Of a DNA stretch of 64,000 nt, positions 1 to 13,328 are shown in pieces. The translations under genes and the position numbers were made by a program. This DNA is from Salinivirgaceae bacterium (GTDB lineage Bacteria; Bacteroidota; Bacteroidia; Bacteroidales; SZUA-534), in contig JAKSOL010000012.1 in assembly GCA_024405635.1 (NCBI GenBank), positions 1-64,000 on the forward strand, read 5' to 3'. Numbering within the stretch: the first letter of the stretch is position 1; every line of letters begins with the position of its first letter. The notes beneath the pieces were generated by a model. It ran no database searches. It was not told where the DNA came from and saw nothing but the letters and a program-made list of their open reading frames with translations.

Positions 1-2053
1 CAATTCGTGGTGGAACTTTGTAATCTCCATATTTACAATTATCAATGGGTCTTGATGGCATAGGCAAAATACAGCCTTTTGCCCAACCTTTAGCGTCATC
101 ACTACCCTTGTGCACTAAAACGCCATCCCTTCCATTTTCAATGTCTGAAATTATTCGCAAAGAATTATTTGTGAGATATTGTTTCTTTTCTTCCTCGTAC
201 ACCTTTGTATTGACCTCAAAATCATAAGTTCCTTCCATTATGCAATAGCAATCATAAGGAATTGATGTATCATCACAACTAGTCTTACATTCATCATCAG
301 TTCCACGAGGCAGCTCTACAGTGTAGCCACTAATTGTTCCATCATCAGTAACCAAAGTTCCTGTTGTTGAGTGTTCTCCTGTATTTGTACGAGTGATGTA
401 AATGACTATCTCATCAGGGTTGTATGCACTATTCAGTACATAATTCTTCAAATCATCAACACAATCGTAATTGCATGTTATCTCAAGAGGATACTTGTCT
501 CCATTCTTTTTACCAAACCCTAATGTAACGTTAGGCTTTCCTAAATCCAACCAATCCTTTTCAGACACATTAATTTCATCCTTGTTATTCACAGTCACAT
601 TCTTTGCATTGATGTTAAGCGTAATGTCGCTTATCAGCTTACCATTTGGCAAGGTAATTTCTCCTGTTTTGGTAGTTGTATTTTCAATATTTCTCGTAAA
701 ATTCAGACCTTTCTGCCTTGCCAAACGCATCGCTCTTACGATTTCCAATATATAATCATTATCATCGTCTTCCTTTACTATATATGGGCATTCTTTTAGG
801 TCAGAAGTCATAAAATAACTAACCCAGTTATTCGCACTAGCATCACTAGCACATGAATACAACGCACTTTGAGTTCCCGACTCTTGTACTTTTGATGCAT
901 CATCATATATGCACAACTTATATATATTGTCAACACTTTTCACCTTAATTAAATGATCTTTTTTAACCTGTATCTTATCGGAAGATGATATGTACTCTTT
1001 GTTATTGAATGAGAAACAAATGTCTCGCAATTCTGTATTCAACGCATCATTATTCAATGGCATATAAATATGCAAGTAATCCAATATAGACATAATTGCA
1101 TTGTCTGTACAACTCCCTGATATTTGAATCGTCAATGAAGGATTGATTTTTCCATTGGAACTGGATTTTCCACCTTCGACAAATGACAAAAGCCAATAAT
1201 CATAACCTTTACACCTGTCAACATATAAATATTTCTTGATACTTGACAATTCCAATTGCTCCAAATCCGTAACAACGACTTTTTTCAAATTACCTATACT
1301 TTTCGTTGTTGTATTATTATATATGGCAATATTATATTCATTACCATCAGGCATTTGTAATTTTCTAATGTAAACTCTTTTCGGGTTCAATGTTATAGAT
1401 GCAATATTTTCATCAACAGCAGCGTCACGAATTTTTTGGAAAATACCGCTCAAAATCTGGTCACTAATATTTGCTCGAATCTTCCACTCACTAAGCCATT
1501 TAATATCATCATCAGACAAATCCTTTAGTTCATCATCATTGTCTTCTTCCTCAATATCAATTGTTGTATTGTCCGAGCCTTCCACCACATCAGCACCACC
1601 TTGATTTTCATTGCCTCCATCTTCTTTTTTGCTTAAGAGTTTCTCCATTTTTTTGCTTTCAAACTGGATATCAATATCATTTGAGTCCCCATTTTGTATT
1701 GTTTTGAAGTATTCCTCACAGTTCGCGTTATTCTTTGAATGTACCTTGTTTAGCAACACAACAAATTTGTCAAGCAAATTGTCTTGCACACTTTCCCCCT
1801 CACTCTCATCCGCCAAAAATCCCAGCAGGTTTGTGTGCGACTCGTGCATCCATTGCCACTGCAGGTGGTTAAGCGTAGTACCGCCGGAGTAGTCCATAAG
1901 GTTTGGCGTGGTGCCTTGGGGGGCATGGTAGCTCTCGCTCTCATCGCTGAAGGTGTGGTGCAATGAGAAGGCGCCGTGGGACACCTCGTGGGCTATGGTG
2001 CTGGCGACATCGAACTGCTCAAAAATGAAGCCAAACTGGCGCCCTACGGGCAT
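1..2053 (-). CDS. Orphan polymorphic-toxin cassette 3 (runs off window edge): truncated HExxH zincin module + DESEGE junction + AT-rich variable region ending in a DUF5675-like domain
   Basis: Not in the ORF track because no stop is reached. Manual translation from ATG at 2053 gives MPVGRQFGFIFEQFDVASTIAHEVSHGAFSLHHTF...NLMDY...FLADESEGE|SVQDNLL..., open in the segments checked down to base 2. The C-terminal part reads IYITRTNTGEHSTTGTLVTDDGTISGYTVELP...GVLVHKGSDDAKGWAKGCILP. Confidence 0.85.
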   Translation of the reverse strand, partial: MPVGRQFGFIFEQFDVASTIAHEVSHGAFSLHHTFSDESESYHAPQGTTPNLMDYSGGTTLNHLQWQWMHESHTNLLGFLADESEGESVQDNLLDKFVVLLNKVHSKNNANCEEYFKTIQNGDSNDIDIQFESKKMEKLLSKKEDGGNENQGGADVVEGSDNTTIDIEEEDNDDELKDLSDDDIKWLSEWKIRANISDQILSGIFQKIRDAAVDENIASITLNPKRVYIRKLQMPDGNEYNIAIYNNTTTKSIGNLKKVVVTDLEQLELSSIKKYLYVDRCKGYDYWLLSFVEGGKSSSNGKINPSLTIQISGSCTDNAIMSILDYLHIYMPLNNDALNTELRDICFSFNNKEYISSSDKIQVKKDHLIKVKSVDNIYKLCIYDDASKVQESGTQSALYSCASDASANNWVSYFMTSDLKECPYIVKEDDDNDYILEIVRAMRLARQKGLNFTRNIENTTTKTGEITLPNGKLISDITLNINAKNVTVNNKDEINVSEKDWLDLGKPNVTLGFGKKNGDKYPLEITCNYDCVDDLKNYVLNSAYNPDEIVIYITRTNTGEHSTTGTLVTDDGTISGYTVELPRGTDDECKTSCDDTSIPYDCYCIMEGTYDFEVNTKVYEEEKKQYLTNNSLRIISDIENGRDGVLVHKGSDDAKGWAKGCILPMPSRPIDNCKYGDYKVPPRI

Positions 2054-2055
2054 GT
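1793..2055. repeat. 263-bp direct repeat, copy A (zincin-DESEGE coding module); copy B at 3992-4254
   Basis: Manual alignment gives 10 mismatches in 263 bp, with a 167-bp identical core (1813-1979). Similarity ends abruptly at the DESEGE codons. Confidence 0.95.
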
Positions 2056-2330
2056 TGCTCCAATCTTCTTTTGCTTGACCAAAAGAAGCAAAACTCAAGC
2101 CCAAATTAATGCGCTCCCCGCTCTGCCTGCCCTCGCTAAATTCCCTTGCAAACGTGTTCCAAACCACGTTTGTGGAATTTATGCTCGGTTGGCATTCACA
2201 ACTGCGCACCCTCGCCCTCCCGATAGCTATCGGGATTGGGCGCGCCCACGCACTCGGGTTTTGCAAACCCGTTGGGAATTTGCTTCTGCGCTTTATGGAA
2301 GTGGCGAGAGATTTTATGCAGAACGATGCA
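2056..2330. repeat. Highly structured non-coding element (REP/MITE- or ncRNA-like)
   Basis: Hairpin cttcttttg/caaaagaag (2065-2088) whose loop gcttga is complementary to tcaagc (2095-2100). Perfect palindromes tcccgatagctatcggga (2218-2235) and tgggcgcgccca (2237-2248). Stems caaacgtg/cacgtttg and cgggttt/aaacccg, enclosed by aaattccc (2138-2145)/gggaattt (2274-2281). Confidence 0.6.
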
Positions 2331-3002
2331 TTAGTTATCACAATCTCCGGTATTAAAGCAATCTTCCCAATCAAGCGTTTGTAAAAGTGGCAATAAATTA
2401 TCCGGCACATGGTCTATTTCATAATTTTCCTTTATTTGCTCAAATCGTAATGTTTGTGTATTTATTCGATAAATAAATGCCTGCATTTTTTTGTCAGATT
2501 GTATATTCCCAGCAACAAATATCATTTGCTGTTCGGGGTTTAAAAGCCCACTTATGCTGTTTTCATATTCATTGCCTTTCACAACTAGAAGAGAATCAAT
2601 TTTTTTGTATTCTTTGTTAAAAATTTCAAAAAACATAAAATAGTCAGTCAATTCATTCGGGGCATTACACTTCAATGATGTATGTGCTATCAAAAAGTAA
2701 GTATCCGTTGTGATTTTCAAACATTTAATTGGTAATTCTCTTTCTCTTACATAACCTCTATTTTCTTCTGTCCACATATCAATATCAATTTTAGTGCAAT
2801 TGATATTTGATGTGTCGCCATAATATACGAATTTGATTGCATCAGATTCATTTACACGTTGATTTGATTGCTCCAAAAGGCTACAGTCAATAATACCACA
2901 ATTTGTGTATTCATCATAAGAATCGATATATATTTTTAAATCTTGAGAAATTACAATATTTGAATAAACTATAAGTAGTAATGCAAGAGTTTGTTTTTTC
3001 AT
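2331..3002 (-). CDS. Exported hypothetical protein, candidate immunity protein for the cassette-2 tip
   Basis: 223 aa, AT-rich, with signal peptide MKKQTLALLLIVYSNIVISQ. Starts 2 bp after the stop of 3005..4816. Confidence 0.75.
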   Translation of the reverse strand: MKKQTLALLLIVYSNIVISQDLKIYIDSYDEYTNCGIIDCSLLEQSNQRVNESDAIKFVYYGDTSNINCTKIDIDMWTEENRGYVRERELPIKCLKITTDTYFLIAHTSLKCNAPNELTDYFMFFEIFNKEYKKIDSLLVVKGNEYENSISGLLNPEQQMIFVAGNIQSDKKMQAFIYRINTQTLRFEQIKENYEIDHVPDNLLPLLQTLDWEDCFNTGDCDN

Positions 3003-3004
3003 AA

Positions 3005-4816
3005 TTAGTATTTAATTACTTCTGTTAGTGTATAATTATTTTTGTTATAAAATCCAGAATAATAGTTAAGAGAATGATCTAGATAAAGTTTATTGGCATC
3101 AGATTTTGCATCACTTTCGTTTTGTTTTTCTCTTCCAGCATCAAAAAATCTTATATATCTAACTCCATTTTCATTTCCTATACCGACTACTACCATAAAA
3201 TGGCGTGTAGCCCTATTGCTGTTGTTGGGAACATTACCACTAGACTTGTTATGGCCAACACCAATCAAAACAGGCCTATTGGCTTCAAGTTCCGATTTTA
3301 TGTAGTTGTAGGCCTCATCTACCGCATTCGCGTCATATATTAGAGGCGTACTGTTGTACTCACTAAGATTGTAGTTCTTATCATTATCAGCGAAATAAGC
3401 GACTTTTATTGTTCCTATTTGAACTTTATATGGAGCTTTTTTTGCGATATCAGAATTATTGCAATCTGCAACCTTGTTATTGCCTAACATATACTCACAT
3501 GCACGTCTACAACACGAAGACCTCCAACATCCTGTACATTTCCCAAATATATTTTCGTCAAATTGGCTAACCCATGCAACTTTATCTGAAATGTCAACAT
3601 TGGGCGAATACAGGTAATTTTCAAACACTTCACATTCGTCGGTTTTTACCGTAAAGGATAAGCATTCGAATTTTTGCTCCGTCTTGAACTTATAGGTTGT
3701 GTAGCTTACGCCATCGTTGGTGCTAACGGTTTTATTCCTTTCGTAAGGAATAATTGAAATCGCCTTTGTTGTTGTCACATCAGATATTGTGTTGCCTTTT
3801 TCTTCATTGAAAGTAAGAGCAAACATAAACAGATAGTTCAATTTAGTTGAATCATCGAGTGCTATTTGTCCACTTTTGCCGTAACTCCAATCCTTATCGA
3901 TACTGAGCACAAGCGATTTTTTGTTGTCGAAGTTAGCCTTGTGTATTTTTTCAAGGTACGATAACACTTGTAAACTATCAATGTCTTTCAATTCCCCCTC
4001 GCTCTCATCATCCAAAAATCCCAGCAGGTTTGTGTGCGACTCGTGCATCCATTGCCACTGCAGGTGGTTAAGCGTAGTACCGCCGGAGTAGTCCATAAGG
4101 TTTGGCGTGGTGCCTTGGGGGGCATGGTAGCTCTCGCTCTCATCGCTGAAGGTGTGGTGCAATGAGAAGGCGCCGTGGCTTAGCTCATGGGCTATGGTGC
4201 TGACGACATCGAACTGCTCAAAAATGAAGCCAAACCGGCGCCCTACGGGCATGTAGCCGCCCACAATGGTGCGGTTGCCGTCGGGGTCGAGCTTGGTAAC
4301 GTTTTTTACCAAGAACAGGTAGTAGGTGTCGCTTTGTTGCGTGCCGAGGGCCTTTATTGCCGACTTCTCGTCGGCACTGTAAACCGAAAGAGGTCCGCTT
4401 CCGCCATGCACGAAGTTCCGCCCGTCGGCATATTGTATTTTCACTGATGGCGCTGTGCTGAGCCTTACGCTGGCAACGGCGGGCCTGAAAATGTCATTCA
4501 GCTCTTTTTCAAGTTTTTGTATGCCTGGCAGGCTGACATCATTCACCGGTACAAGGCAGATGTTTATCTCTTTGGGCTCGAACGTATCAAGGTTGAGCTT
4601 GCCGACCACCTCGGTGGTGGTGTCGGAGGTGGCCACGTGGGCATATACCGGCGACTCGCCTGCCGTGGCATCGCCACGGAGCTCCACGGCGTACGGCACG
4701 CCCAGCTGGTTGCGGAAGGTAACATTGACAGAATTCGCAAATACGTCAACCCACAGCACGCACAAGCAAGCAATGGCTATGAGCAAACTAAAGATATGAC
4801 GGGATAAGGAATTCAT
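3005..4816 (-). CDS. Polymorphic-toxin cassette 2: signal peptide + zincin (HELSH) module + DESEGE + papain/peptidase C39-like Cys-His-Asp tip
   Basis: 603 aa. From VTFRN to DESEGE it is homologous to the middle of the 1290-aa protein. The tip contains VAWVSQF...CCRRACEYML...RPVLIGV...HFMVVVG...YIRFFDAG. Confidence 0.85.
   Translation of the reverse strand: MNSLSRHIFSLLIAIACLCVLWVDVFANSVNVTFRNQLGVPYAVELRGDATAGESPVYAHVATSDTTTEVVGKLNLDTFEPKEINICLVPVNDVSLPGIQKLEKELNDIFRPAVASVRLSTAPSVKIQYADGRNFVHGGSGPLSVYSADEKSAIKALGTQQSDTYYLFLVKNVTKLDPDGNRTIVGGYMPVGRRFGFIFEQFDVVSTIAHELSHGAFSLHHTFSDESESYHAPQGTTPNLMDYSGGTTLNHLQWQWMHESHTNLLGFLDDESEGELKDIDSLQVLSYLEKIHKANFDNKKSLVLSIDKDWSYGKSGQIALDDSTKLNYLFMFALTFNEEKGNTISDVTTTKAISIIPYERNKTVSTNDGVSYTTYKFKTEQKFECLSFTVKTDECEVFENYLYSPNVDISDKVAWVSQFDENIFGKCTGCWRSSCCRRACEYMLGNNKVADCNNSDIAKKAPYKVQIGTIKVAYFADNDKNYNLSEYNSTPLIYDANAVDEAYNYIKSELEANRPVLIGVGHNKSSGNVPNNSNRATRHFMVVVGIGNENGVRYIRFFDAGREKQNESDAKSDANKLYLDHSLNYYSGFYNKNNYTLTEVIKY
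3992..4254. repeat. 263-bp direct repeat, copy B
   Basis: Matches 1793-2055 with 10 mismatches. Confidence 0.95.
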
Positions 4817-5319
4817 TGTTGCTTATTTGAGGTTGTATTGAACTTCTGTTTTTGGACCTCATTATACCTTTTTTTCTTTATACGAATCAAAAACAATGTT
4901 CTCAAAAACAACATTGGTATTATCAAATCCCAAAAAACTGGATTTGCCATATCAACAAATGGATTACAAACTATATTTAACCAACCATTATTAAAAACTG
5001 TGATTCTGCTACACGAACCATGCATACCATCTAGCATTGTCATAAATAGCAAAAACAAATAGGTGCATGGAAACCAATCAATATTTAGAAATGAAACTAT
5101 TACAAATTTTTTGTATGATGTAGAATCAGGTAACAATAAAAATAATTGCAACACTATAAATGGGAAATATAATAGAGCAAAAAATAACGAGAATTTTAAA
5201 CCACACCTTGAAAATAACGACGACAAAAAAGGTATTAAGATTTCAAGAATAGCAAAAGCAATCAAAATTTTATGTGTGGTACCACTATTTTTGAAGGGTA
5301 CATATCCAATAATTTTCAT
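4813..5319 (-). CDS. Multi-pass membrane protein, candidate immunity protein for the full-length toxin tip
   Basis: AT-rich with about four hydrophobic segments. ATG at 5319 (TTG alternative at 5328) overlaps the toxin 3' end, and the stop overlaps the next start (ATGA). Confidence 0.7.
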   Translation of the reverse strand: MKIIGYVPFKNSGTTHKILIAFAILEILIPFLSSLFSRCGLKFSLFFALLYFPFIVLQLFLLLPDSTSYKKFVIVSFLNIDWFPCTYLFLLFMTMLDGMHGSCSRITVFNNGWLNIVCNPFVDMANPVFWDLIIPMLFLRTLFLIRIKKKRYNEVQKQKFNTTSNKQQ

Positions 5320-8300
5320 TTTTTTCAAATGTTACTTTGACATTGTTGTCTATCATGTAAATATTCATTTCAAATATTTGAGATTGTGTATCTGTTTCAA
5401 AATTTGATTTATGCATTTTTTCTTTATAATAGATATAAAAGCCTTTTGCTTTTGTGTCAAAAATTTCTTCCGGTAGATTTTTAATTGGAATTTTAAATGA
5501 TGGTTTTTCATCCAACAATGCTATTTGAAGAGCGAAAATACCATCCAATCGAATTGTTATATTGTTTTTACTTTTACCCCAATCCACTACACTTTGAACT
5601 GTAGCCTGCGCATCGCCAGCATTACCTTTTGCACCAAATTTTTCCAACAATTCAGTAGCACGTTTTACATAAAGCATAAATAAATTAGAACGTCTAATAA
5701 TTTCATCCGGTTCACTTCCGTCACTTGTATGTCCAAGCGTAAACGCCATACACCCATTCACATCATCACCATACATTTTGTATGTGTTTTGGCGGGCTTC
5801 GGGTAGATACTTCAATAAATTTTCTTGTGAAAAATCCGTTGTGATTACGTTATCAGCATTCTCGGCACATAGAATGGACCCCACAACTTTATTTATGATT
5901 GCATCATTGGAATAGGTTGTCAGACATTTACCATCGGACATTTGGAAATAAGAGTTTTCTCCTAACACTTTGACAGTTCCGTTTGTAAGTAGGATTTGTT
6001 CCCCGACTTTTGTGAAAATGAATTTATCATTAACAAACTTTTCTACCGCATCTATATAGTCTTGTAGAGGCACATCGTCAAAGCCTTTCGAATCGTTTGA
6101 TATTTCAAAATGCGCAAACACATCGCCAAAACGATGTAATAAATACTTTTGAAATGCCACAGAGTTTGGATATTTTGTTATTGCATAAGCCGTTGCTGCC
6201 AACTCAACACCATGGTATCCACCCGTTAAAGCGTGGTTACGTTGTTGTAGTCCACCAATCAGCCATGTTGTATTTTCAAGCATATTACCGACTTCCGAAC
6301 CTTCGGGAATAGTTAGCGTTACATCATTGCCCATTACCACGGTTCCTTTTTTCAAGTCGTCCTCGGTTATAACATGCGTGTCAGGTTCCTCGGCATATCT
6401 GCCAAGTTCTTCAGCCTCCCCATAGCTCATTCCCATCAACATTCCCAAATACGTAAACAAATAATAATGCCCGTCGGTAGTCCATTCTCCCTCACTCTCA
6501 TCCGCCAAGAACCCAAACAGCCCGCTGCCGTGTTTCTCGTGCATCCAAGTCCATTGCTTGTGGTTAAGGGCGATGCCATCGGCATAGTCCATTAAATTGT
6601 CCGTTGAGTATTGCGGTGCACTAAAACTCTCTGTTTCAGAAGAAAAAGTATGGTGCAAACCAAACGCGCCGTGGCCTAACTCATGAGCCACATATTTGGC
6701 GGCTGGCACGCCAAACAGAAATCCGTGCTGTCGGCCAATTGGCATATAGCCTGCCAATATATCTTTCATTGGCGTGCCATCGGCGTTTAGGCGTGTTACA
6801 TTGTCAACTACAAACAAATAATAAGTGTCGTTGTCGGCATTCTGCAACGTTTTAATTGCATTTTTTTCGTCCTCGCTATACACTGAGAGCAATCCGCTAC
6901 CTCCATGCACAAAACCGCTGCCGTTGGCATATTGTATATTTATAGGTGTTGCAGTGCTCAGTTTCACACTTGCCACGGCAGGTTTGAAAATCTTATTCAG
7001 CTCTTTTTCAAGTGTTTGCGCGTTTGGCGGAGTTGCGCCATTCACAGGTACAAAGCAGACGTTTATCTCGCGCGGCTCAAAGGTGAGCAGATTGAGTTTG
7101 CCAACCACTTTGGTGGTGCTGTCGGTTTCGGCCACGTGGGCATAGACGAGCGTTTCGCCGGGCTGCGGCTCTCCGCGAAGAAGTATCTCGCCATTGGCTT
7201 TTGCGTATGGCACGCCCATATTATTGCGGAAGGTTACACCATCCATTGGGTCGGCTAAAATTTTATCTGTCTGCCATTGTGCAATACTTTTATAAGCAGG
7301 ACGGTAGCCGCCCTCAAGTGCGGAATATATTTCGGGATAATTATTGCTTGTTTCGTTATAGGCGTCAAAACCGTAGGTTTGCAAACTGCTTGGTGAGAAA
7401 ACAACTTCACCTGCGGCTATCTGCTTGTCTTTGCGCTCGTTGTCGTTCTTAATGAGCGTGCTGTTCTTGCCGGTGTTGTGGTACTGCTCGGCGCTCATCA
7501 GGCGGTGGTCGCTTGTTACAACCATCTTGTTTCCTTCGGCATCTTCTACCATGGTGCGGCCAGCGTTGGCCAACAGCGGTGTTACGTTTTTTTCTGTGCC
7601 GTCTTGTAGTACGGCTATGTAGTTGTCGTTCTGGTCTTTATAAATGGTTTGTACGGTATAACTGAGTTTCAGAGTGTCGCGAATGCTGTTGTCGTAAAAA
7701 ACGGTTGCGGTGTTGTTTCTTATGTCAGTTATGGTGGCGGCAATGGCTTTGGGACTGACCATCAGGCCGTCGTTGCGCACGCTGCGCCACTGGCCGTCGA
7801 AAATCACGCCGTCGGTGTTCACCTTCAGGTCGGTGTAGTCGCAGCGCACCTTGGTCTTCCACAGCTCGAGCCACAGGTAGAACTGGCCGTTGTATGAGCC
7901 GTCGCCGTTGGGCACTGCCGTGAGCACAATGAAGCGTGTGCGGCCGGTGCGGTTCTCAATGGTATCGCCCTCGTGCAGCTCCTTCAGCTCGTAATTGGTT
8001 ATGGTGCGCGGCTTGGGCGTGTCGTCGCAGCCGCAGTTGGGGCACTCCTCGGGCGTGGGCGGTGTTCCGGGCGGGTCTATCTCAAAGTCGCTCCACGGCG
8101 ACCAGTCGGCTTCCAGTCCGCCGCTGCACTCGCCGCGCACCCGCACCTTCCATGTGCTGCCCCGCGGAAAGTCGTACAGCTTGAACTGGCTGTCGTAGCA
8201 GTCGTTGAGCTCCGACACTCCGTTGTCGCCAACCAGCTCAACCTGGAAATGGGTGTGATACGGCGACGGTGTCCAGCTGAAATCGACACGGGCGTTGTGC

Positions 8301-9157
8301 ACTTCGGCCGACACTTCGTCAACAGCAGGGCAGGTGTGCAGGTAGGTGAACTCGCGCACTTCCGACTGTCCGTTCTTGTTTATAACCGCCTTCCCGCTCG
8401 GGTCGAACACCGTTACGCGCCAGCAGTATTGCATGCCGGGCTCAAGGTTCATGGCGGCCGGTATGGCTGTGTAGGTGGTGGCGGCGGTGGTTGTCTCGAA
8501 GATTGGTGACATGCTTGCTGCCACAGTCTGTGCCGGAACTCCCTGCATGCGCATCTCCCACACCTGCAGTTTGTACTGCACAGCCTCCGTTCCGCCGGTG
8601 TGCTTGCTGGGCTGCCAGTTGAAGATGAGCGGCAGCGATGCGTTGTCGGGGGCCTCGGTGCCGTTGCGCGGTGTGGTTAGCTCGGGCGGGTCGTAGATGC
8701 TTATCCATGCGGTCTGCGAGCCGCGGTTCGAGAGCACGCGGTGGTTGTAGAAGTGGTGCACTTCGACGGTCAGCCGCCACATGCCGCCGGGCAGTTGTCC
8801 GGTTTGGCGGTACTGCTCCTTGCTGTAGCCGCGGAAGTCGAGATTGTCAAGACGCAGATACTGCGCCAAGTCGCTGCCGGTAAGTACCAGTGTCTCGCCT
8901 CCGCCCAAAAAGAGCGGTGTCACGGCGGAGGTCTTTATGCTCTCAATGGTTATGTCGTTGGACTCCAGCTTGAAGTGCAGCCGCACGGGCAGGTTGCTGG
9001 CCGTCAGGTCGTTGACGGTGATGGTTGTCATCAGCCGCGCCGAAGCGGGCGCAGTCAGCTCGCTAAGGTTGAGTGTGTAAGGTGTCAGCAGTGTCGGGGT
9101 AACCGTCACCGGATAGCGCTGTGCCGCAGCCGTCAGGCTCAGCAGAATAGCGGTCAA
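5285..9157 (-). CDS. Full-length secreted polymorphic toxin-like protein: TANFOR-like N-terminus, fibronectin type III-like repeats, HExxH zincin metallopeptidase, DESEGE junction, Zn-PLC/S1-P1-fold tip
   Basis: 1290 aa. Signal ends AAAQ-RYPVTVTPTLLTPY. FN3-like segments (LIFNWQP...YCWRVTV; VDFSWTP...WKVRVRGEC). AHELGHGAFGLHHTF...NLMDY (HELGH at 6671-6685). DESEGE at 6485-6502. The tip starts WTTDGHYY...AEEPD...KYLLHRFGDVFAH. Confidence 0.85.
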   Translation of the reverse strand: MTAILLSLTAAAQRYPVTVTPTLLTPYTLNLSELTAPASARLMTTITVNDLTASNLPVRLHFKLESNDITIESIKTSAVTPLFLGGGETLVLTGSDLAQYLRLDNLDFRGYSKEQYRQTGQLPGGMWRLTVEVHHFYNHRVLSNRGSQTAWISIYDPPELTTPRNGTEAPDNASLPLIFNWQPSKHTGGTEAVQYKLQVWEMRMQGVPAQTVAASMSPIFETTTAATTYTAIPAAMNLEPGMQYCWRVTVFDPSGKAVINKNGQSEVREFTYLHTCPAVDEVSAEVHNARVDFSWTPSPYHTHFQVELVGDNGVSELNDCYDSQFKLYDFPRGSTWKVRVRGECSGGLEADWSPWSDFEIDPPGTPPTPEECPNCGCDDTPKPRTITNYELKELHEGDTIENRTGRTRFIVLTAVPNGDGSYNGQFYLWLELWKTKVRCDYTDLKVNTDGVIFDGQWRSVRNDGLMVSPKAIAATITDIRNNTATVFYDNSIRDTLKLSYTVQTIYKDQNDNYIAVLQDGTEKNVTPLLANAGRTMVEDAEGNKMVVTSDHRLMSAEQYHNTGKNSTLIKNDNERKDKQIAAGEVVFSPSSLQTYGFDAYNETSNNYPEIYSALEGGYRPAYKSIAQWQTDKILADPMDGVTFRNNMGVPYAKANGEILLRGEPQPGETLVYAHVAETDSTTKVVGKLNLLTFEPREINVCFVPVNGATPPNAQTLEKELNKIFKPAVASVKLSTATPINIQYANGSGFVHGGSGLLSVYSEDEKNAIKTLQNADNDTYYLFVVDNVTRLNADGTPMKDILAGYMPIGRQHGFLFGVPAAKYVAHELGHGAFGLHHTFSSETESFSAPQYSTDNLMDYADGIALNHKQWTWMHEKHGSGLFGFLADESEGEWTTDGHYYLFTYLGMLMGMSYGEAEELGRYAEEPDTHVITEDDLKKGTVVMGNDVTLTIPEGSEVGNMLENTTWLIGGLQQRNHALTGGYHGVELAATAYAITKYPNSVAFQKYLLHRFGDVFAHFEISNDSKGFDDVPLQDYIDAVEKFVNDKFIFTKVGEQILLTNGTVKVLGENSYFQMSDGKCLTTYSNDAIINKVVGSILCAENADNVITTDFSQENLLKYLPEARQNTYKMYGDDVNGCMAFTLGHTSDGSEPDEIIRRSNLFMLYVKRATELLEKFGAKGNAGDAQATVQSVVDWGKSKNNITIRLDGIFALQIALLDEKPSFKIPIKNLPEEIFDTKAKGFYIYYKEKMHKSNFETDTQSQIFEMNIYMIDNNVKVTFEKNENYWICTLQK

Positions 9158-9190
9158 TATGGCTAAGAAACGATTTATTGCAGTTAGGAT

Positions 9191-9250
9191 TTACGAATTA
9201 TGAATTACGAATTACGATTTTTCGTTATCGTTAGTGTTTATCGTTTTCAG
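9191..9250. repeat. Short intergenic heptamer/hexamer tandem repeats
   Basis: ttacgaa-ttatgaa-ttacgaa-ttacgat (9191-9218), then degenerate ttNtcg units. Confidence 0.7.
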
Positions 9251-9265
9251 TTTGCGTTCATATCA

Positions 9266-10165
9266 TTACTCAATCACTTCATAATCTGGATTATCGGCAA
9301 ACCATTTACGCACCATGCGCAAGGCACCTTCGTAATCGTCAGTCTCAATCATTCCAGTCTCCGAAGCCGCATACGGAAATCCTTTGACAACGGGTGCCAG
9401 CAGTTCCATTATGCGATAGCCACAGAGTATTTTCGTATCAACCGTAGGATTGGCAGAAGCGCACTTGCAGCCATCATCTTGCAGAATTTTCACGCAGACA
9501 TCAATGGCTTGTTTTTGCCGTGTGTAGATAAGTTCTGGAATAATCAAGCGCATCAGGTCTTCAACGTATTCGTATGGAATCGATGCCGCCCGGCGAGTCA
9601 CAAAGTCAATGTCGCGCTGCTCGCCTAATCGTGCCATGGCCAAATGCATCGCCCACCGCGTTTCCACATCCGACTCTTTGTCAATCATTTGCCGGCTGAG
9701 AATCTGTTCGTAACCAACGCCCAACTGAGCAGCCATTTTAGCCACTTGTTCGTAGTAGATAGCATTCCGTTTGTTGAGACGCTCTTCGATAAGCCGCTGT
9801 GCAGCAGTGTCAACATCGGTTTTGCCAAAATACCGCAATCGGCTGATATTGTTCGACACTATGCGTGAGCTACCGTTATTGAGCCCGCCAGCCAGAAAAC
9901 GTACAGCAGCCTGACGTCCTGCAGCATTGCCAGAATTCCGACCAGCAAGTGCCACAATGTTGTAGGCTTCGTCGGCTACATCGGTCACAGAATCATGCGC
10001 ATAAGTGTTCAATAGTTCGGTCAACGCCACCACATCCGTTGTTTTCCACAGATGTTCAGGTGTTTCCCGCGTCTTGCTGTTTACTCTTATATCATCAAGA
10101 TATTCAATAACTTGTGCCGGCGCCATCAGCGGTGTCAGCATCAGAAACAGAAAAAAGAATCTCAT
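9266..10165 (-). CDS. Exported alpha-helical (HEAT/ARM-like) hypothetical protein upstream of the toxin gene
   Basis: True start is likely the ATG at 10165 (MRFFFLFLMLTPLMAPAQ signal peptide), giving 299 aa. The ORF-track extension to 10390 lies inside the IS. Confidence 0.8.
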   Translation of the reverse strand: MRFFFLFLMLTPLMAPAQVIEYLDDIRVNSKTRETPEHLWKTTDVVALTELLNTYAHDSVTDVADEAYNIVALAGRNSGNAAGRQAAVRFLAGGLNNGSSRIVSNNISRLRYFGKTDVDTAAQRLIEERLNKRNAIYYEQVAKMAAQLGVGYEQILSRQMIDKESDVETRWAMHLAMARLGEQRDIDFVTRRAASIPYEYVEDLMRLIIPELIYTRQKQAIDVCVKILQDDGCKCASANPTVDTKILCGYRIMELLAPVVKGFPYAASETGMIETDDYEGALRMVRKWFADNPDYEVIE

Positions 10166-10223: not shown

Positions 10224-11563
10224 TGTGCCCTTCTCCAAAAACCGGACAGGTTTGAATTAGACAAAAGAACGATAATTTTGTCAAAAGGAGGAAGAAAATG
10301 AAAAAGAAGATTCACAGCGAGTCGGAGATGGTGAGAGCCGTCCAGGAATTGGAAAGAGGCATAAATGCCGAAGTAGTGGCAAGGGACCACGGAGCGTCAC
10401 GATCCTCCCTCTACAATTGGAAATCGAAGTACAGCGGAATGGAAGTCAGCCAAGTAAAGCGACTGAAAGAACTTGAAGAGGAAAACCTGAAACTGTAGCA
10501 GATGTATGCCGACCTTGCCCTCGACAACCAGATTCTGAAGGAGGTCATCGAAAAAAAAACTCTAGAGCCCGAGATAAAGAAAAACCTAGCCAACGGTATC
10601 GTAGAAGAATATGGAGTGAGCATCTCTCGGGCGTGCAAGATGATGGACATCCACAGATCTTACTTCTACTACGAAAGCGTAAAGGACGACGCAGAAGTTG
10701 AAGAATCCATTAGAGAAGCCGCCAAATATGGAGATGGCTTTTGGAAGATCTTTGAGATAATCAGACGTGACGGTTACGCTTGGAATCACAAAAAGGTGTA
10801 TCGCGTATATAAGGCAATGCACTATGAAAAGCGCAAGCGTCTCAGAAAACATCTGCCAGCTAGGGTTAAGAACCTACTTGAACAACCGCTGAAACCCTTC
10901 GTGGCATGGTCTATAGACTTTGTGAGCGATGTTCTTGAATGCGGTCGCAAGTTCCGAGTTCTTGACATCCTTGATGATAGCGATAGAGTTGCGGTAGCAC
11001 AGGAAGTATCAATGTCGTTCCCAGCAAAAAGGGTTATCAAAGTGCTTGAGAAGGTGATATGGCTCAATGGCAAGCCAAAGAATATGTGATGCGACAATGG
11101 CCCTGAATTCATTGCCGGGGAATTCAGCGAATGGTGTGCAGGCAACGACATACGCATATTATACATTCAGCCAGGTTGCCCAACGCAGAATAGCTACATT
11201 GAGCGATTCAACGGTAGCTATCGGAGGGCTATACTTGACGCATACATTTTTCGCACGCTTGGCGAGGTGCGAGAGAAAACTGAGGAGTGGATGTCATATT
11301 ACAACAACGAAAGACCCCATGAATCAATAGGTAACATACCGCCAATGGAACAAAGGACAAATAAGTGGGAATATGAAGATTGATATTCTGACATGCAAAG
11401 AAAGATGCGCCTACGGGTTGCGCAAGGCCATGCCAAGTGCCCTGCGGGCAGCCTTGCACAACTCTCCGGCTTTGCTAGTTTATGCATATCAGAAATCAAT
11501 CCAGAGAAAATAATTAATATTTGTTGTCTAATTAATAACTGTCCTAAAAAAGGGAAGTTTACA
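10224..11563 (+). mobile_element. IS3-family insertion sequence (degenerate)
   Basis: TG...CA ends with imperfect IRs (left tgtgcccttctccaaaaaccggacaggtttgaattagacaa; right reverse-complement tgtaaacttcccttttttaggacagttattaattagacaa). OrfA is HTH-like; OrfB has DDE motifs WSIDF, CDNGPEF, NSYIERFN, YNNERPHESIG. Confidence 0.9.
10298..11383 (+). pseudogene. IS3-family transposase orfAB, interrupted by two nonsense codons
   Basis: TAG at 10496-10498 within orfA and TGA at 11087-11089 just before CDNGPEF. The same frame continues to TGA at 11381-11383. Confidence 0.85.
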
Positions 11564-11699: not shown

Positions 11700-13328
11700 T
11701 TAAAAATCGTAGTAGATGTTTTGTAATGATGTGCGTAAACCAAAGGTTATTAGATTTTGATTATTAGATTTTGCATTAACCTTTTCAGCACGGTAGGTGT
11801 ATCCCACAAACGCATTCATATTTACTCTTGGATTAATTAAAAACGAAGCTTGTGCGTTAAAGTTGGTTAACGTAACTTTTTGACCTTGAGATATTTTGCA
11901 GTGATATTCGGAGGCATGCGTTTCGTATGGTAAGTAAATATTGTTGCCAAAGTTAAGTCCAGCGGTGTCGCGACCATGAATAGCGTGGGTTAGTTTTGCC
12001 TCTACAAACAATCGTTTATAGTTGTATCGGCCTATGGCAACTAACTCTTTAAAGTTGCTACCTAATGGGTGAGCTAATGGTTGTTGGTAATGCGCGTAAT
12101 TTTGTATCGTAATGGTGTGCGAAAAAATGTAAGGTCGCGCAATATTGTATTCAAGTTGAATGTCGAGGTGCTTAAGCCCAAATAAATCGAACGTTTTGTA
12201 GCCCATTTGCATGGCCCATTTGTTGCCCCACCAACCCCAAGTTCCACTTGTGTCGCTGCTGTTAAATGCGTGTTTTATGTCGCGACCAAGTTCCTTAACC
12301 TTGCACTCGTCAATTATGGCTTGTCCGTACAAAATATGGTTTTTGCCTAAAGTTATTTTTCCGCTAATGCCCATAAGTGCATTGTCGCTTGACCCTACAG
12401 AAAACTCAACTGGGCGAGTAAAAATTACAGGGTTAGCATAGTTTATATCAAAGCCGCGGTGGCTAACACTATCGGCGTTTGCCCAAATTATAGACTCAAA
12501 CAACCCAATGTTGAGCCAATCGGTTACATTGATGCTTAAATAGTTGAACGAGCCCCATTTTTTATCGTGCGGATGACCATAGAAGTAGTGATTGGTAAGG
12601 TCTTGAAACTGAGCCCAAATGTTAACATATTTTATGCGCCAGTAGTCGGTTGTGATGCGCAAAAATGGGTAGTTGAAGGCGCAGTCGCTCAAAAGCATCG
12701 ACCTATAACCATCGCCAATAAAGTTTTTACCGTGTCCCAATGTGATGTCGAAATGCTCGTTTGGTTGAAATGTTAGATACGCATCGCTTCGTGCATAGTC
12801 GTAGGCGTTAGGTTTGTCCTTAAAACTTTTTGGTTGGCCTTGTCCCGGAATAACTCTACATGCCGAAACTACATTGTATCGATAGTCGAAAAACTGAGCT
12901 TGATTTTCGTAAAACGATGTACTGAAGGCTATTTTGTCGCCTAACCTTGCATTAATAATTATGCCGCGTGTGTTAATCCAACTTTTGTCGTCGGCTTTGG
13001 AGTCAAAACCCAACTGAAAATCAAATAATGGGTCGATGCTGAAACTCAATTTGTCGTCGCTAGTGAAACTAATCCAACTATTGTTAAGCAGTATGTTTGC
13101 AAATTTGCTTTTAACGTTAATGCGGTAAATTGAATCGGCATCAACCAAAGGAGTTACTTGTCGCAATTGTATTGGCTTAACGCTTGTGTGAAAATGTGCA
13201 TCTTTTTGGTATATGTATCGGTCAAAGTGATTGAATTGGTGATCTTGATACATTGATATAAACTCTTGGCTTTGAGCCGAAAAGCTGACAAGTAAAAGTA
13301 TAAGAGCAATTGATGTTTTCAGTTTCAT
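11700..13328 (-). CDS. Outer-membrane beta-barrel protein (Wzi capsule-assembly / RemB-like family)
   Basis: 542 aa with signal peptide and C-terminal YYDF. Motifs GHGKNFIGDGYRSMLLSD, GLFESIIW, QPLAHPLGSNF. Confidence 0.7.
   Translation of the reverse strand: MKLKTSIALILLLVSFSAQSQEFISMYQDHQFNHFDRYIYQKDAHFHTSVKPIQLRQVTPLVDADSIYRINVKSKFANILLNNSWISFTSDDKLSFSIDPLFDFQLGFDSKADDKSWINTRGIIINARLGDKIAFSTSFYENQAQFFDYRYNVVSACRVIPGQGQPKSFKDKPNAYDYARSDAYLTFQPNEHFDITLGHGKNFIGDGYRSMLLSDCAFNYPFLRITTDYWRIKYVNIWAQFQDLTNHYFYGHPHDKKWGSFNYLSINVTDWLNIGLFESIIWANADSVSHRGFDINYANPVIFTRPVEFSVGSSDNALMGISGKITLGKNHILYGQAIIDECKVKELGRDIKHAFNSSDTSGTWGWWGNKWAMQMGYKTFDLFGLKHLDIQLEYNIARPYIFSHTITIQNYAHYQQPLAHPLGSNFKELVAIGRYNYKRLFVEAKLTHAIHGRDTAGLNFGNNIYLPYETHASEYHCKISQGQKVTLTNFNAQASFLINPRVNMNAFVGYTYRAEKVNAKSNNQNLITFGLRTSLQNIYYDF

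Follow-up and report, generated by a model that had tools for sequence, protein, structure and literature searches.

TANFOR-domain polymorphic toxins of the Bacteroidetes were described by Jana, Salomon and Bosis (Life Sci Alliance, 2020; PMC7073777). According to the parts of that paper available to us, one new DNase tip was proven, and export by a type IX secretion system (T9SS) was hypothesised from enrichment in the gene neighbourhoods. One preprint has TANFOR only as a trafficking domain. The PVC-metallopeptidase toxins belong, according to the sections at hand of Zhang et al. 2012 (PMC3482391), to contractile injection systems. Here we describe a toxin locus in the genome of a Salinivirgaceae bacterium (G000; 2.66 Mb in 36 contigs, GC 0.40). 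It is found at the beginning of the analysed stretch of DNA, hereafter the window, which comprises the first 64 kb of contig C4 (JAKSOL010000012.1). C4, C8, C12, C14, C29 and so forth denote contigs of this genome, and labels beginning with L, G, P and X denote related loci, genomes, proteins and public runs, respectively.

The locus is most probably a polymorphic toxin array of the TANFOR class of the Bacteroidota, with stored downstream cassettes. What we observed in its support is the architecture of the locus, the metzincin fold and motif of a constant module, the variability of the tips, the co-variation of tips and downstream genes, the breakpoints at the junction and a set of linked accessory genes. 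Release of the tip by the protease, its export and its toxicity are steps that we infer.

Organisation of the locus and variability of the tips

The toxin locus is located entirely on the minus strand of the window. ORF1, the full-length toxin gene (5285..9157, TTG start), encodes 1290 aa and is laid out, from N to C terminus, as a short signal-peptide-like stretch, a TANFOR-like head (about residues 1–170; 8648..9157), a fn3-like region, a middle region, the constant pre-toxin module (residues 640–885; 6503..7240), the junction DESEGE (residues 886–891; 6485..6502) and tip 1 (399 aa; 5288..6484), a His/Asp-rich candidate metalloenzyme weakly related to DUF6765. The module consists of a small beta domain followed by the metzincin catalytic domain. 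The end of ORF1 overlaps by 44 nt with candidate immunity gene 1 (4813..5328), encoding 171 aa with four hydrophobic segments (four putative transmembrane helices, 4-TM). ORF2, a short form of 603 aa (3005..4816), has its own signal-peptide-like start and a complete module, and its start codon immediately abuts the stop of the upstream small gene. It continues through the junction (4009–3992) into tip 2 (3008..3991), a papain-like (peptidase C39-like) Cys-His-Asp domain, and is followed by candidate immunity gene 2 (2331..3002; 223 aa, signal-peptide-like start). ORF3 (2..2410) is a spare cassette that lacks a signal peptide, with module homology at 2058–1793 only, the junction at 1810–1793 and tip 3 at 1792–2. 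It is cut by the contig start, since the window represents positions 1–64000 of C4. The module common to the three ORFs reads HE..HGAF.LHHTFS...NLMDY...QW.WMHE...FL(A/D)DESEGE.

The variability starts directly behind this module. The genome has 8 tips, and no relationship was found in any of their 28 pairwise comparisons (BLASTP E<1e-5). A comparison of 206 tails (21115 pairs; the proteins of the window were part of the set, as were some identical copies from databases) showed that the modules were related in 21063 of the pairs, the tails in only 563. Where the modules were at least 70% identical (598 pairs), the tails were related in just 37 cases. Furthermore, each tip of the genome recurs elsewhere on divergent modules, tip 1 on 14 proteins. 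Long tails have internal sub-domains in common, and the tails are therefore mosaics rather than single domains. For this reason single-linkage clustering of the tails, rejected as a grouping, produced one cluster of 97.

The genes downstream of the tips follow this variation. From related loci we compiled tails together with their downstream ORFs; with redundancy removed, 66 pairs were left, giving 2145 comparisons. Tails were related in 92 of these and downstream ORFs in 15, and all 15 were also tail-related (Fisher p 1e-21), in a count that is not phylogenetically independent. An N-terminal hydrophobic stretch was found in 41 of the 66 downstream ORFs.

A sequence-only reading of this DNA had proposed three co-oriented ORFs with a common DESEGE-ended module and divergent C-termini, a small gene after each of the first two tips, and the polymorphic toxin architecture of a full-length gene, candidate immunity genes and spare cassettes with a fixed junction. 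All of this was recovered, as was the co-variation of hypervariable C-termini with downstream genes among the homologues, which it had named as a check. The claim that the module occurs in all three ORFs stands in full for ORF1 and ORF2, where it is complete; ORF3 holds only its last ~90 residues, from MPVGRQFGF, as a truncated spare cassette.

The locus is also a mosaic in base composition. From the carrier (0.79) through the module (0.52) and the tips (0.30–0.33) to the small downstream genes (0.24–0.27), the GC content of third codon positions (GC3) falls. Within ORF1 alone the gradient is extreme, from 0.79 (head) to 0.30 (tip), which makes the two ends of the gene outliers on opposite sides of the genome's 40% GC.

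Kinship of the carrier with the TANFOR class

ORF1 would be the expressed full-length toxin, with a putative Sec signal, a divergent TANFOR-like head and fn3-like domains as its delivery part. We found 110 homologues of ORF1 over residues 1–900. When 30 full-length homologues were aligned and compared with TIGR02542, the TANFOR model, 17 of them matched it at E<=0.01, the lowest value being 6.6e-11, and ORF1 is therefore taken to be a divergent relative of the TANFOR class. Protein P0213, with 32.5 bits to TIGR02542, aligns with 97% of ORF1 residues 1–900. The designation TANFOR-like is applied to ORF1 in the sense of transitive homology only. The fn3-like domains of the carrier, expected from the sequence-only reading, are likewise visible through the homologues.

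Several observations weigh against the reading of this locus as a TANFOR-class array with a metzincin and lethal tips. ORF1 itself gave no match to TIGR02542 at E<=1, and the earlier claim of a TANFOR-like head thus stands by way of the 17 homologues and not by a direct match. The best match in the genome was the C8 paralogue with 15.2 bits, and no homologue was seen to reach the 67-bit cut-off of the model. ORF1 has no ATG, and from the TTG only a 13-residue signal-peptide-like stretch, MTAILLSLTAAAQ, is encoded. The third histidine of the zinc motif is invariant (HExxHx6H) but lies seven residues past the second His, where six are canonical for metzincins; the motif departs from the consensus HExxHxxGxxH also in having no Gly at the consensus position. 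Tip 1 gave no fold match with Foldseek at E<=0.001, and phmmer against the PDB found nothing relevant. The idea that tip 1 is a zinc phospholipase C with an N-terminal Trp ligand received no support from the fold searches, only weak leads. On the same side we count the limit stated with the co-variation count and those given below for the public contigs, the contig join, the HINT domains and the complex prediction.

Close homologues of ORF1 begin with MHRLLTIITTMLLSLTAMAQ|RYPV, and their classical signal peptides end in AQ|RYPV. At 9119–9190 (minus strand) of the window, where homologues open with MHRLL... or MRRIL..., the frame of ORF1 reads ILTAINRFLAILTAILLSLTAAAQ and TTG is the only start on offer. 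The same short start has been called in three close database relatives, 84–88% identical to ORF1.

Spare cassettes and possible tip switching

ORF2, ORF3 and probably a cassette of 644 aa at the end of contig C14 may represent stored alternatives to the tip of ORF1. Further toxin copies in the genome are a full-length gene of 1603 aa on C8 and an array on C29 encoding 779, 596 and 158 aa, with small genes carrying signal-peptide-like starts in between. In addition, a module relic of 95 aa (C12:199329–199613) is located 1.8 kb upstream of an accessory gene encoding ~1500 aa (201463–206046), which suggests a decayed third locus. The C29 array also holds a 143-aa ORF (C29:6097–6525, minus strand) that by eye resembles a PIN domain.

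The organisation is that of orphan cassettes, truncated and downstream, with constant-region DNA ending at the junction. ORF2 and ORF3 are 95.9% identical at the DNA level over 266 nt, and the block ends exactly with the last junction codon (3992 and 1793). Similar blocks are shared by the C14 cassette and ORF1 (93.6% over 327 nt) and by the 596-aa and 779-aa genes on C29 (95.3% over 337 nt), and all three blocks terminate at the junction or within 12 nt of it. With near-identical module DNA of 266–337 nt that ends at or before the junction, homologous recombination could therefore place a new pair of tip and immunity gene behind the carrier. A block of 99.3% identity over 300 nt between the C29 779-aa gene and the C8 gene lies inside the carrier, and over 686 nt the identity of ORF1 to ORF2 is 66.6%. 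Of 79 related loci, a set in which 27 have full flanks, 8 contain two or three modules, with small genes interleaved.

Breakpoints at the junctions are seen in other public runs, in assembled contigs that can be chimeric at repeats. Likeness to the window is lost on the tip side at 6483 in run X5 and at 6484 in run X6, an RNA library; tip 1 starts at 6484. In contigs of run X2 it ends at 4004, inside the ORF2 junction. Two contigs, possibly assembly chimeras, fuse ORF2-type and ORF1-type module halves at homologous positions, and such hybrid contigs of other samples hint at recombination. Tip 1, the small gene behind it and the start of ORF2 are also found, in the order of the window, on a contig of 1993 nt from a different study. 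The region 2150–4000 is mostly uncovered by the contigs of X2, X5 and X6, which says nothing on absence.

ORF2 could alternatively be an independent short toxin, made up of signal peptide, module and tip 2 and translationally coupled to the upstream immunity gene. We consider this less likely than not. In support of it, ORF2 has a plausible signal peptide in front of its complete module, the start codon abuts the preceding stop, contigs from an RNA library span 4548–4987 and hence the ORF2 start, and short forms are frequent in the family. However, ORF2 lacks the TANFOR/fn3 carrier that is present in every full-length member, the RNA-library contigs are no proof of transcription, and the closest relative (P0056, locus L036) has by eye no obvious signal peptide. 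We prefer to regard ORF2 as a stored cassette.

The array may extend beyond the contig. Comparison with genome G004 suggests that C4 continues into C14, which would place the array between the HEAT-like gene described below and the fn3/barrel pair on C14; this link rests only on synteny with that genome. Joining C4 and C14 by sequence failed, the missing end of tip 3 being absent from the assembly. C14 terminates in 31 nt that are found again at the ends of C15, C25 and C35, and that for this reason look like an assembly artefact (or a shared repeat).

The metzincin module and the junction

A structure of ORF1 residues 640–1290 was modelled with AlphaFold2 (mean predicted local distance difference test, pLDDT, 82.1). 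The model shows, in order, the small beta domain, the catalytic domain, a stretch with pLDDT <50 and the tip. The low-confidence stretch (model residues 238–255, corresponding to ORF1 877–894) covers the junction. The zinc motif of ORF1 is HELGHGAFGLHH and its Met-turn NLMDY. Aligned with VIA-align, the catalytic domain (model residues 54–239) matched ulilysin (2cki; Z 13.2, root-mean-square deviation 2.8, 166 residues aligned), adamalysin (1dth; Z 13.1), PAPP-A (Z 12.2) and mirolysin (Z 12.1). A Z of at least 8 was reached by 25 chains, and all 25 top-ranked chains were metallopeptidases, mostly metzincins. Foldseek matches spanned E 4e-5 to 1e-3, with profragilysin-3 at 4e-5. These matches bear out the metzincin-like protease of the sequence-only reading.

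The module is widespread. A phmmer search with ORF1 residues 480–900, covering carrier and module, against 1.84 billion representatives retrieved 1685 clusters when the limit was set to E<=1e-3, of which 1108 remained at E<=1e-10. In full-length members (total length ~1150–2150 residues) the module ends near residue 900, and many short family proteins start within it. The consensus of the zinc motif in the family is AHELGHGAFNLxHTF. Of the 150 best representatives, 138 have the NLMDY Met-turn and 12 are fragments or without the motif, and HExxH is kept in 138/138 stretches as judged by reading. In an alignment of 30 sequences H825, E826, H829 and H836 are invariant, as is the Met-turn except for its Met (>=90%). 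NCBIfam metzin_BF0631 is touched by 10 out of 30 homologues and Pfam Peptidase_M43 is matched by only 1 out of 13 relatives (E 0.0071). Judging from the model and these motifs, the constant module is a predicted pappalysin-like metzincin that is conserved family-wide.

Outside the Bacteroidota the module was seen only in records labelled Clostridium sp., Bifidobacteriaceae and Rickettsiales (loci L035, L046 and L070). These labels are likely binning errors.

The metzincin appears to end in an acidic, flexible junction, typically [FW]xQDE(E/S)EGE, which is conserved in 211 members; beyond it the sequence is variable, and here the toxic tip would begin. We propose that the metzincin cleaves at or near this junction and thereby frees the tip. 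Its position right before the tip is that of known releasing peptidases, by analogy with the PVC-metallopeptidase in the available part of PMC3482391; the conserved acidic junction, predicted to be disordered, comes straight after it; and the catalytic motif is kept in essentially all members. It has to be weighed against these points that the metzincin may not be self-releasing at all, but instead cut target surface proteins for entry, provide a second toxic activity, or serve as a structural platform or recombination junction. In two homologues, PT-HINT and Hint_2 follow the module (precomputed Pfam); PT-HINT is a releasing domain, and the metzincin therefore need not be the releasing peptidase. 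Furthermore, several tails bear an extra HExxH metzincin-like motif of their own, and the nearest structural relatives (fragilysin, ulilysin and the ADAMs) are secreted proteases acting in trans. On balance we find a function other than self-release rather unlikely and retain release of the tip by the metzincin as the working proposal.

Accessory genes and the possible route of export

Directly upstream of ORF1 is a HEAT-like accessory gene (9266..10165, minus strand) encoding ~300 aa with the signal-peptide-like start MRFFFLFLMLTPLMAPAQ. Its product matches Pfam HEAT_2 weakly (E 0.0071), and its family has no name or Pfam domain. The linked set further includes a barrel-like protein of 575 aa encoded on C14, the adjoining gene for a 682-aa fn3 protein (fn3 E 2.7e-14) and the ~1500-aa protein, whose gene neighbours the module relic on C12 in this genome. 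The 575-aa protein has a signal-peptide-like start, a C-terminal Phe and 21 alternating amphipathic 9-mers, compared with 7.25 +/- 2.4 in shuffles. It had no Pfam match, and its family profile found no relative among PDB sequences (best E 1.9). From its sequence pattern alone, it may be a barrel-like outer-membrane protein.

The occurrence of these genes follows that of the toxin module. Among 41 related genomes, 11 module-positive and 30 module-negative, the barrel-like gene is present in 10/11 versus 3/30 and the HEAT-like gene in 9/11 versus 3/30, and in six genomes barrel-like and HEAT-like genes are found on the same contig as the module. In the 79 related loci the barrel-like gene occurs in 26 (14 of the 27 with full flanks; on the toxin strand in 25/26), the HEAT-like gene in 16 (10/27; 16/16), the ~1500-aa gene in 15 (9/27; 13/15) and the gene for the 682-aa fn3 protein in 14 (7/27; 13/14). 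The barrel-like gene is positioned directly upstream of the toxin gene in many loci of Cytophagales and Flavobacteriales.

A giant gene of 2852–3086 aa lies between accessory and toxin genes in loci L109 (G001) and L110 (G015) and has no counterpart at the window locus. The G015 giant is directly upstream of the toxin gene and ends, by eye, like a T9SS C-terminal domain (CTD). The G001 giant is one gene away from the toxin, and here the CTD-like end, again by eye, is found on a separate 568-aa ORF between the two.

The window also encodes a 542-aa outer-membrane-protein-like gene (11700–13328, minus strand) with a signal peptide and a C-terminal YYDF. It was considered as the partner barrel and rejected, being a core gene found in 33/41 relatives regardless of toxin and in 0/85 toxin loci. 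Between it and the HEAT-like gene, at 10298–11400 on the plus strand, are three consecutive ORFs in shifted frames that by eye resemble an IS3-family transposase, possibly broken, in which an OrfA-like helix-turn-helix part precedes one that resembles an integrase.

Export across the outer membrane would use the barrel-like protein with its HEAT-like, fn3 and ~1500-aa partners, the T9SS, or both. Export by the T9SS, as proposed by Jana et al., would leave the four linked genes another role, such as surface anchoring or regulation. The genome does encode a T9SS, with SprA at 2473 bits and 32 ORFs matching Por_Secre_tail above cut-off; the giants near the toxin genes of G015 and G001 have CTD-like ends by eye; and, the accessible text of PMC7073777 reports an enrichment of SprB and CTD domains in the vicinity of TANFOR genes, and a T9SS in >95% of TANFOR genomes. 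However, none of the 32 matches to Por_Secre_tail (TIGR04183) in the genome falls inside a toxin ORF, in agreement with the sequence-only reading, which had noted no C-terminal T9SS signal on the toxins. Moreover, C-termini that are hypervariable leave no fixed signal at that end of the protein. The published link is a correlation, the terms TANFOR, polymorphic and antibacterial are all missing from a 2023 review of T9SS effectors, and the barrel-like gene is tightly linked to, and often immediately upstream of, the toxin gene. We regard T9SS export as somewhat improbable. It is a tentative and in our view still less probable idea that the toxins exit via a dedicated, as yet undescribed apparatus of outer-membrane barrel, periplasmic HEAT-like, fn3 and ~1500-aa proteins, not the T9SS, and that the metzincin then frees the tip at the junction outside the cell. 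If true, interbacterial toxins of the Bacteroidota would have in this apparatus a new route of secretion and delivery.

Candidate activities of the tips and their immunity genes

Tails of homologues match EndoU_bacteria, AHH, ART/ADPrib_exo_Tox, Peptidase_M23, Peptidase_M15_4 and Peptidase_C39_2 above the Pfam cut-offs. We propose that the tips of this locus kill neighbouring bacteria through attack on the envelope.

Tip 1 may be regarded as a candidate metalloenzyme, and its target is possibly a membrane lipid. Its invariant residues are H6, D35, H84, H91, H117, D121, H125, H252 and D260. DUF6765 matches 3 out of 13 relatives (best E 4.8e-4), and Zn_dep_PLPC matches 1 out of 13, weakly (E 0.031), with a protein-atlas score of 0.85 that we treat as a lead only. 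The VIA-align list for tip 1 is filled by a small C-terminal domain (best Z 7.9). The phospholipase idea mentioned above originated from W892 right after the junction and the His/Asp pattern; only some members of the tip-1 group have Trp at the first position of the tip.

Residues 131–319 of tip 2 match PDB entries 9jdd_A and 9jg8_C, named 'Peptidase C39-like domain-containing protein', with E 9.4e-14. In the part of PMC13699834 that was accessible, 9JG8 is cited as the structure of a Bacteroides fragilis PAAR protein (PAAR-GS086) from a type VI secretion system (T6SS) locus. The invariant residues of tip 2 include C160/C161, H264 and D284. Tip 3 matches DUF5675 (E 1.7e-7; 31.5 bits, above the 26.7-bit cut-off) and had no match among PDB sequences; its protein-atlas entries, YkuD and Tlde1_dom, are leads only. 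The tip of the C14 cassette is 68% identical to a tail bearing Peptidase_M15_4.

The small genes downstream of tips 1 and 2 are candidate cognate immunity genes, and each would provide an immunity protein against its tip, located in the membrane in the case of tip 1 and in the periplasm in that of tip 2. Loci with a tip of type 1 continue with small polytopic membrane proteins, exemplified by G004, where a 136-aa 4-TM protein of low sequence similarity is encoded. In loci L029, L036 and L076 tip 2 is again accompanied by its 223-aa neighbour. This pair passed a complex prediction, scoring 0.78 in the median where the best of 3 controls scored 0.00, from self-made 4-row alignments and with a similar complex possibly already solved; the mark applied to this score is reached by 58/80 solved complexes and 2/110 mismatched pairs. 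The contacts agreed between runs by at least 81% and the pLDDT of the partner was at least 87. In the predicted complex the partner contacts residues 155–162, 262–265 and 286–288 of tip 2, and covers the Cys160/161 and His264 regions.

That the ORFs are not toxins but duplicated surface proteases or adhesins for nutrient acquisition, as secreted metzincins with fn3 domains in a genome from a gut community (gut metagenomes) might suggest, is very improbable considering the nucleases, ADP-ribosyltransferases and cell-wall hydrolases among the family tails, the small downstream genes that co-vary with the tails, the immunity-like partner predicted over the catalytic site of tip 2 and the match of tip 2 to 9jdd and 9jg8/9jg9 (peptidase C39-like), of which 9JG8 is cited for a B. 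fragilis T6SS PAAR protein in the text at hand.

Comparison with known systems

TANFOR toxins occur widely among the Bacteroidota that live in guts, soils and seas, and neither their processing nor their exit is known to have been demonstrated so far. The present locus offers handles on both: the conserved catalytic glutamate and the acidic junction for self-release, and the linked barrel-led genes for export. The spare cassettes have exact homology boundaries, so that tip switching can be tracked. Cultivable carriers exist among the related loci (Marivirga tractuosa, Ohtaekwangia koreensis and Aquimarina species), which makes tests of TANFOR release and export practical.

The sequence-only reading had supposed a different and possibly undescribed chassis. 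This has to be given up, as TANFOR-headed polymorphic toxins were published in 2020 (PMC7073777). The proteins described in the consulted part of that paper are large, Sec-signalled and from Bacteroidota. Like the present family, they begin with a TANFOR head, contain Fn3 domains, end in toxins that vary (AHH, EndoU, ADP-ribosyltransferases, cell-wall hydrolases) and have immunity genes downstream. The difference is that ORF1 itself has no TIGR02542 match. The words metallo, zinc, peptidase, protease and orphan do not occur in its main text, which therefore gives no description of the metzincin module and its acidic junction, of arrays of spare cassettes or of the unannotated accessory genes, although the supplementary tables may list such domains. 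Literature searches combining metzincin with polymorphic toxin and T9SS with interbacterial toxin gave nothing on this arrangement, and TANFOR, fn3 and metzincin are absent from the available portion of Zhang et al. 2012 (PMC3482391). Thus, the class is known, and the metzincin with its junction, the DNA boundaries of the cassettes, the co-variation of tips and downstream genes and the accessory set are not in the literature searched. The remaining interest lies in the metzincin and junction as a candidate release device, in the cassette arrays and in the barrel-led set as a candidate export route.

Loci of the Rhs, CdiA and MafB types share with this one a full-length gene followed by truncated cassettes that keep the constant region up to a fixed junction, an immunity gene per cassette and AT-rich tips. 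They differ in their carriers: Rhs/YD and filamentous haemagglutinin repeats, PAAR, VgrG and MafB are not found here. The sequence-only reading had likewise noted no Rhs, filamentous haemagglutinin, PAAR/VgrG or LXG markers, and none were present in a Pfam scan of ORF1–3 at E<=0.1. Junction motifs are PxxxxDPxGL in Rhs and VENN in CdiA proteins. The junction described here is unlike either: a metzincin ends in an acidic motif rich in D/E.

The PVC-metallopeptidase (DUF4157) toxins, as presented in the accessible sections of PMC3482391, are similar in having a constant zinc peptidase N-terminal to variable toxin domains, with self-cleavage proposed. Their motif is HExxHxxQ-E, whereas the module of this locus has a third histidine, a Met-turn and a metzincin fold, and membership of ORF1 in that family is ruled out by the motif. 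Furthermore, ORF1 has a carrier of ~640 residues before the peptidase, and immunity genes are regular here.

The closest likeness of the module in fold is to the pappalysins (ulilysin, mirolysin and PAPP-A; MEROPS M43) and to fragilysin. The LxHTF after the zinc motif and the N-x-MDY Met-turn presumably resemble M43 motifs as well. In contrast to the pappalysins, the third histidine is found one residue further along, and the domain is embedded in a toxin carrier instead of forming a free protease.

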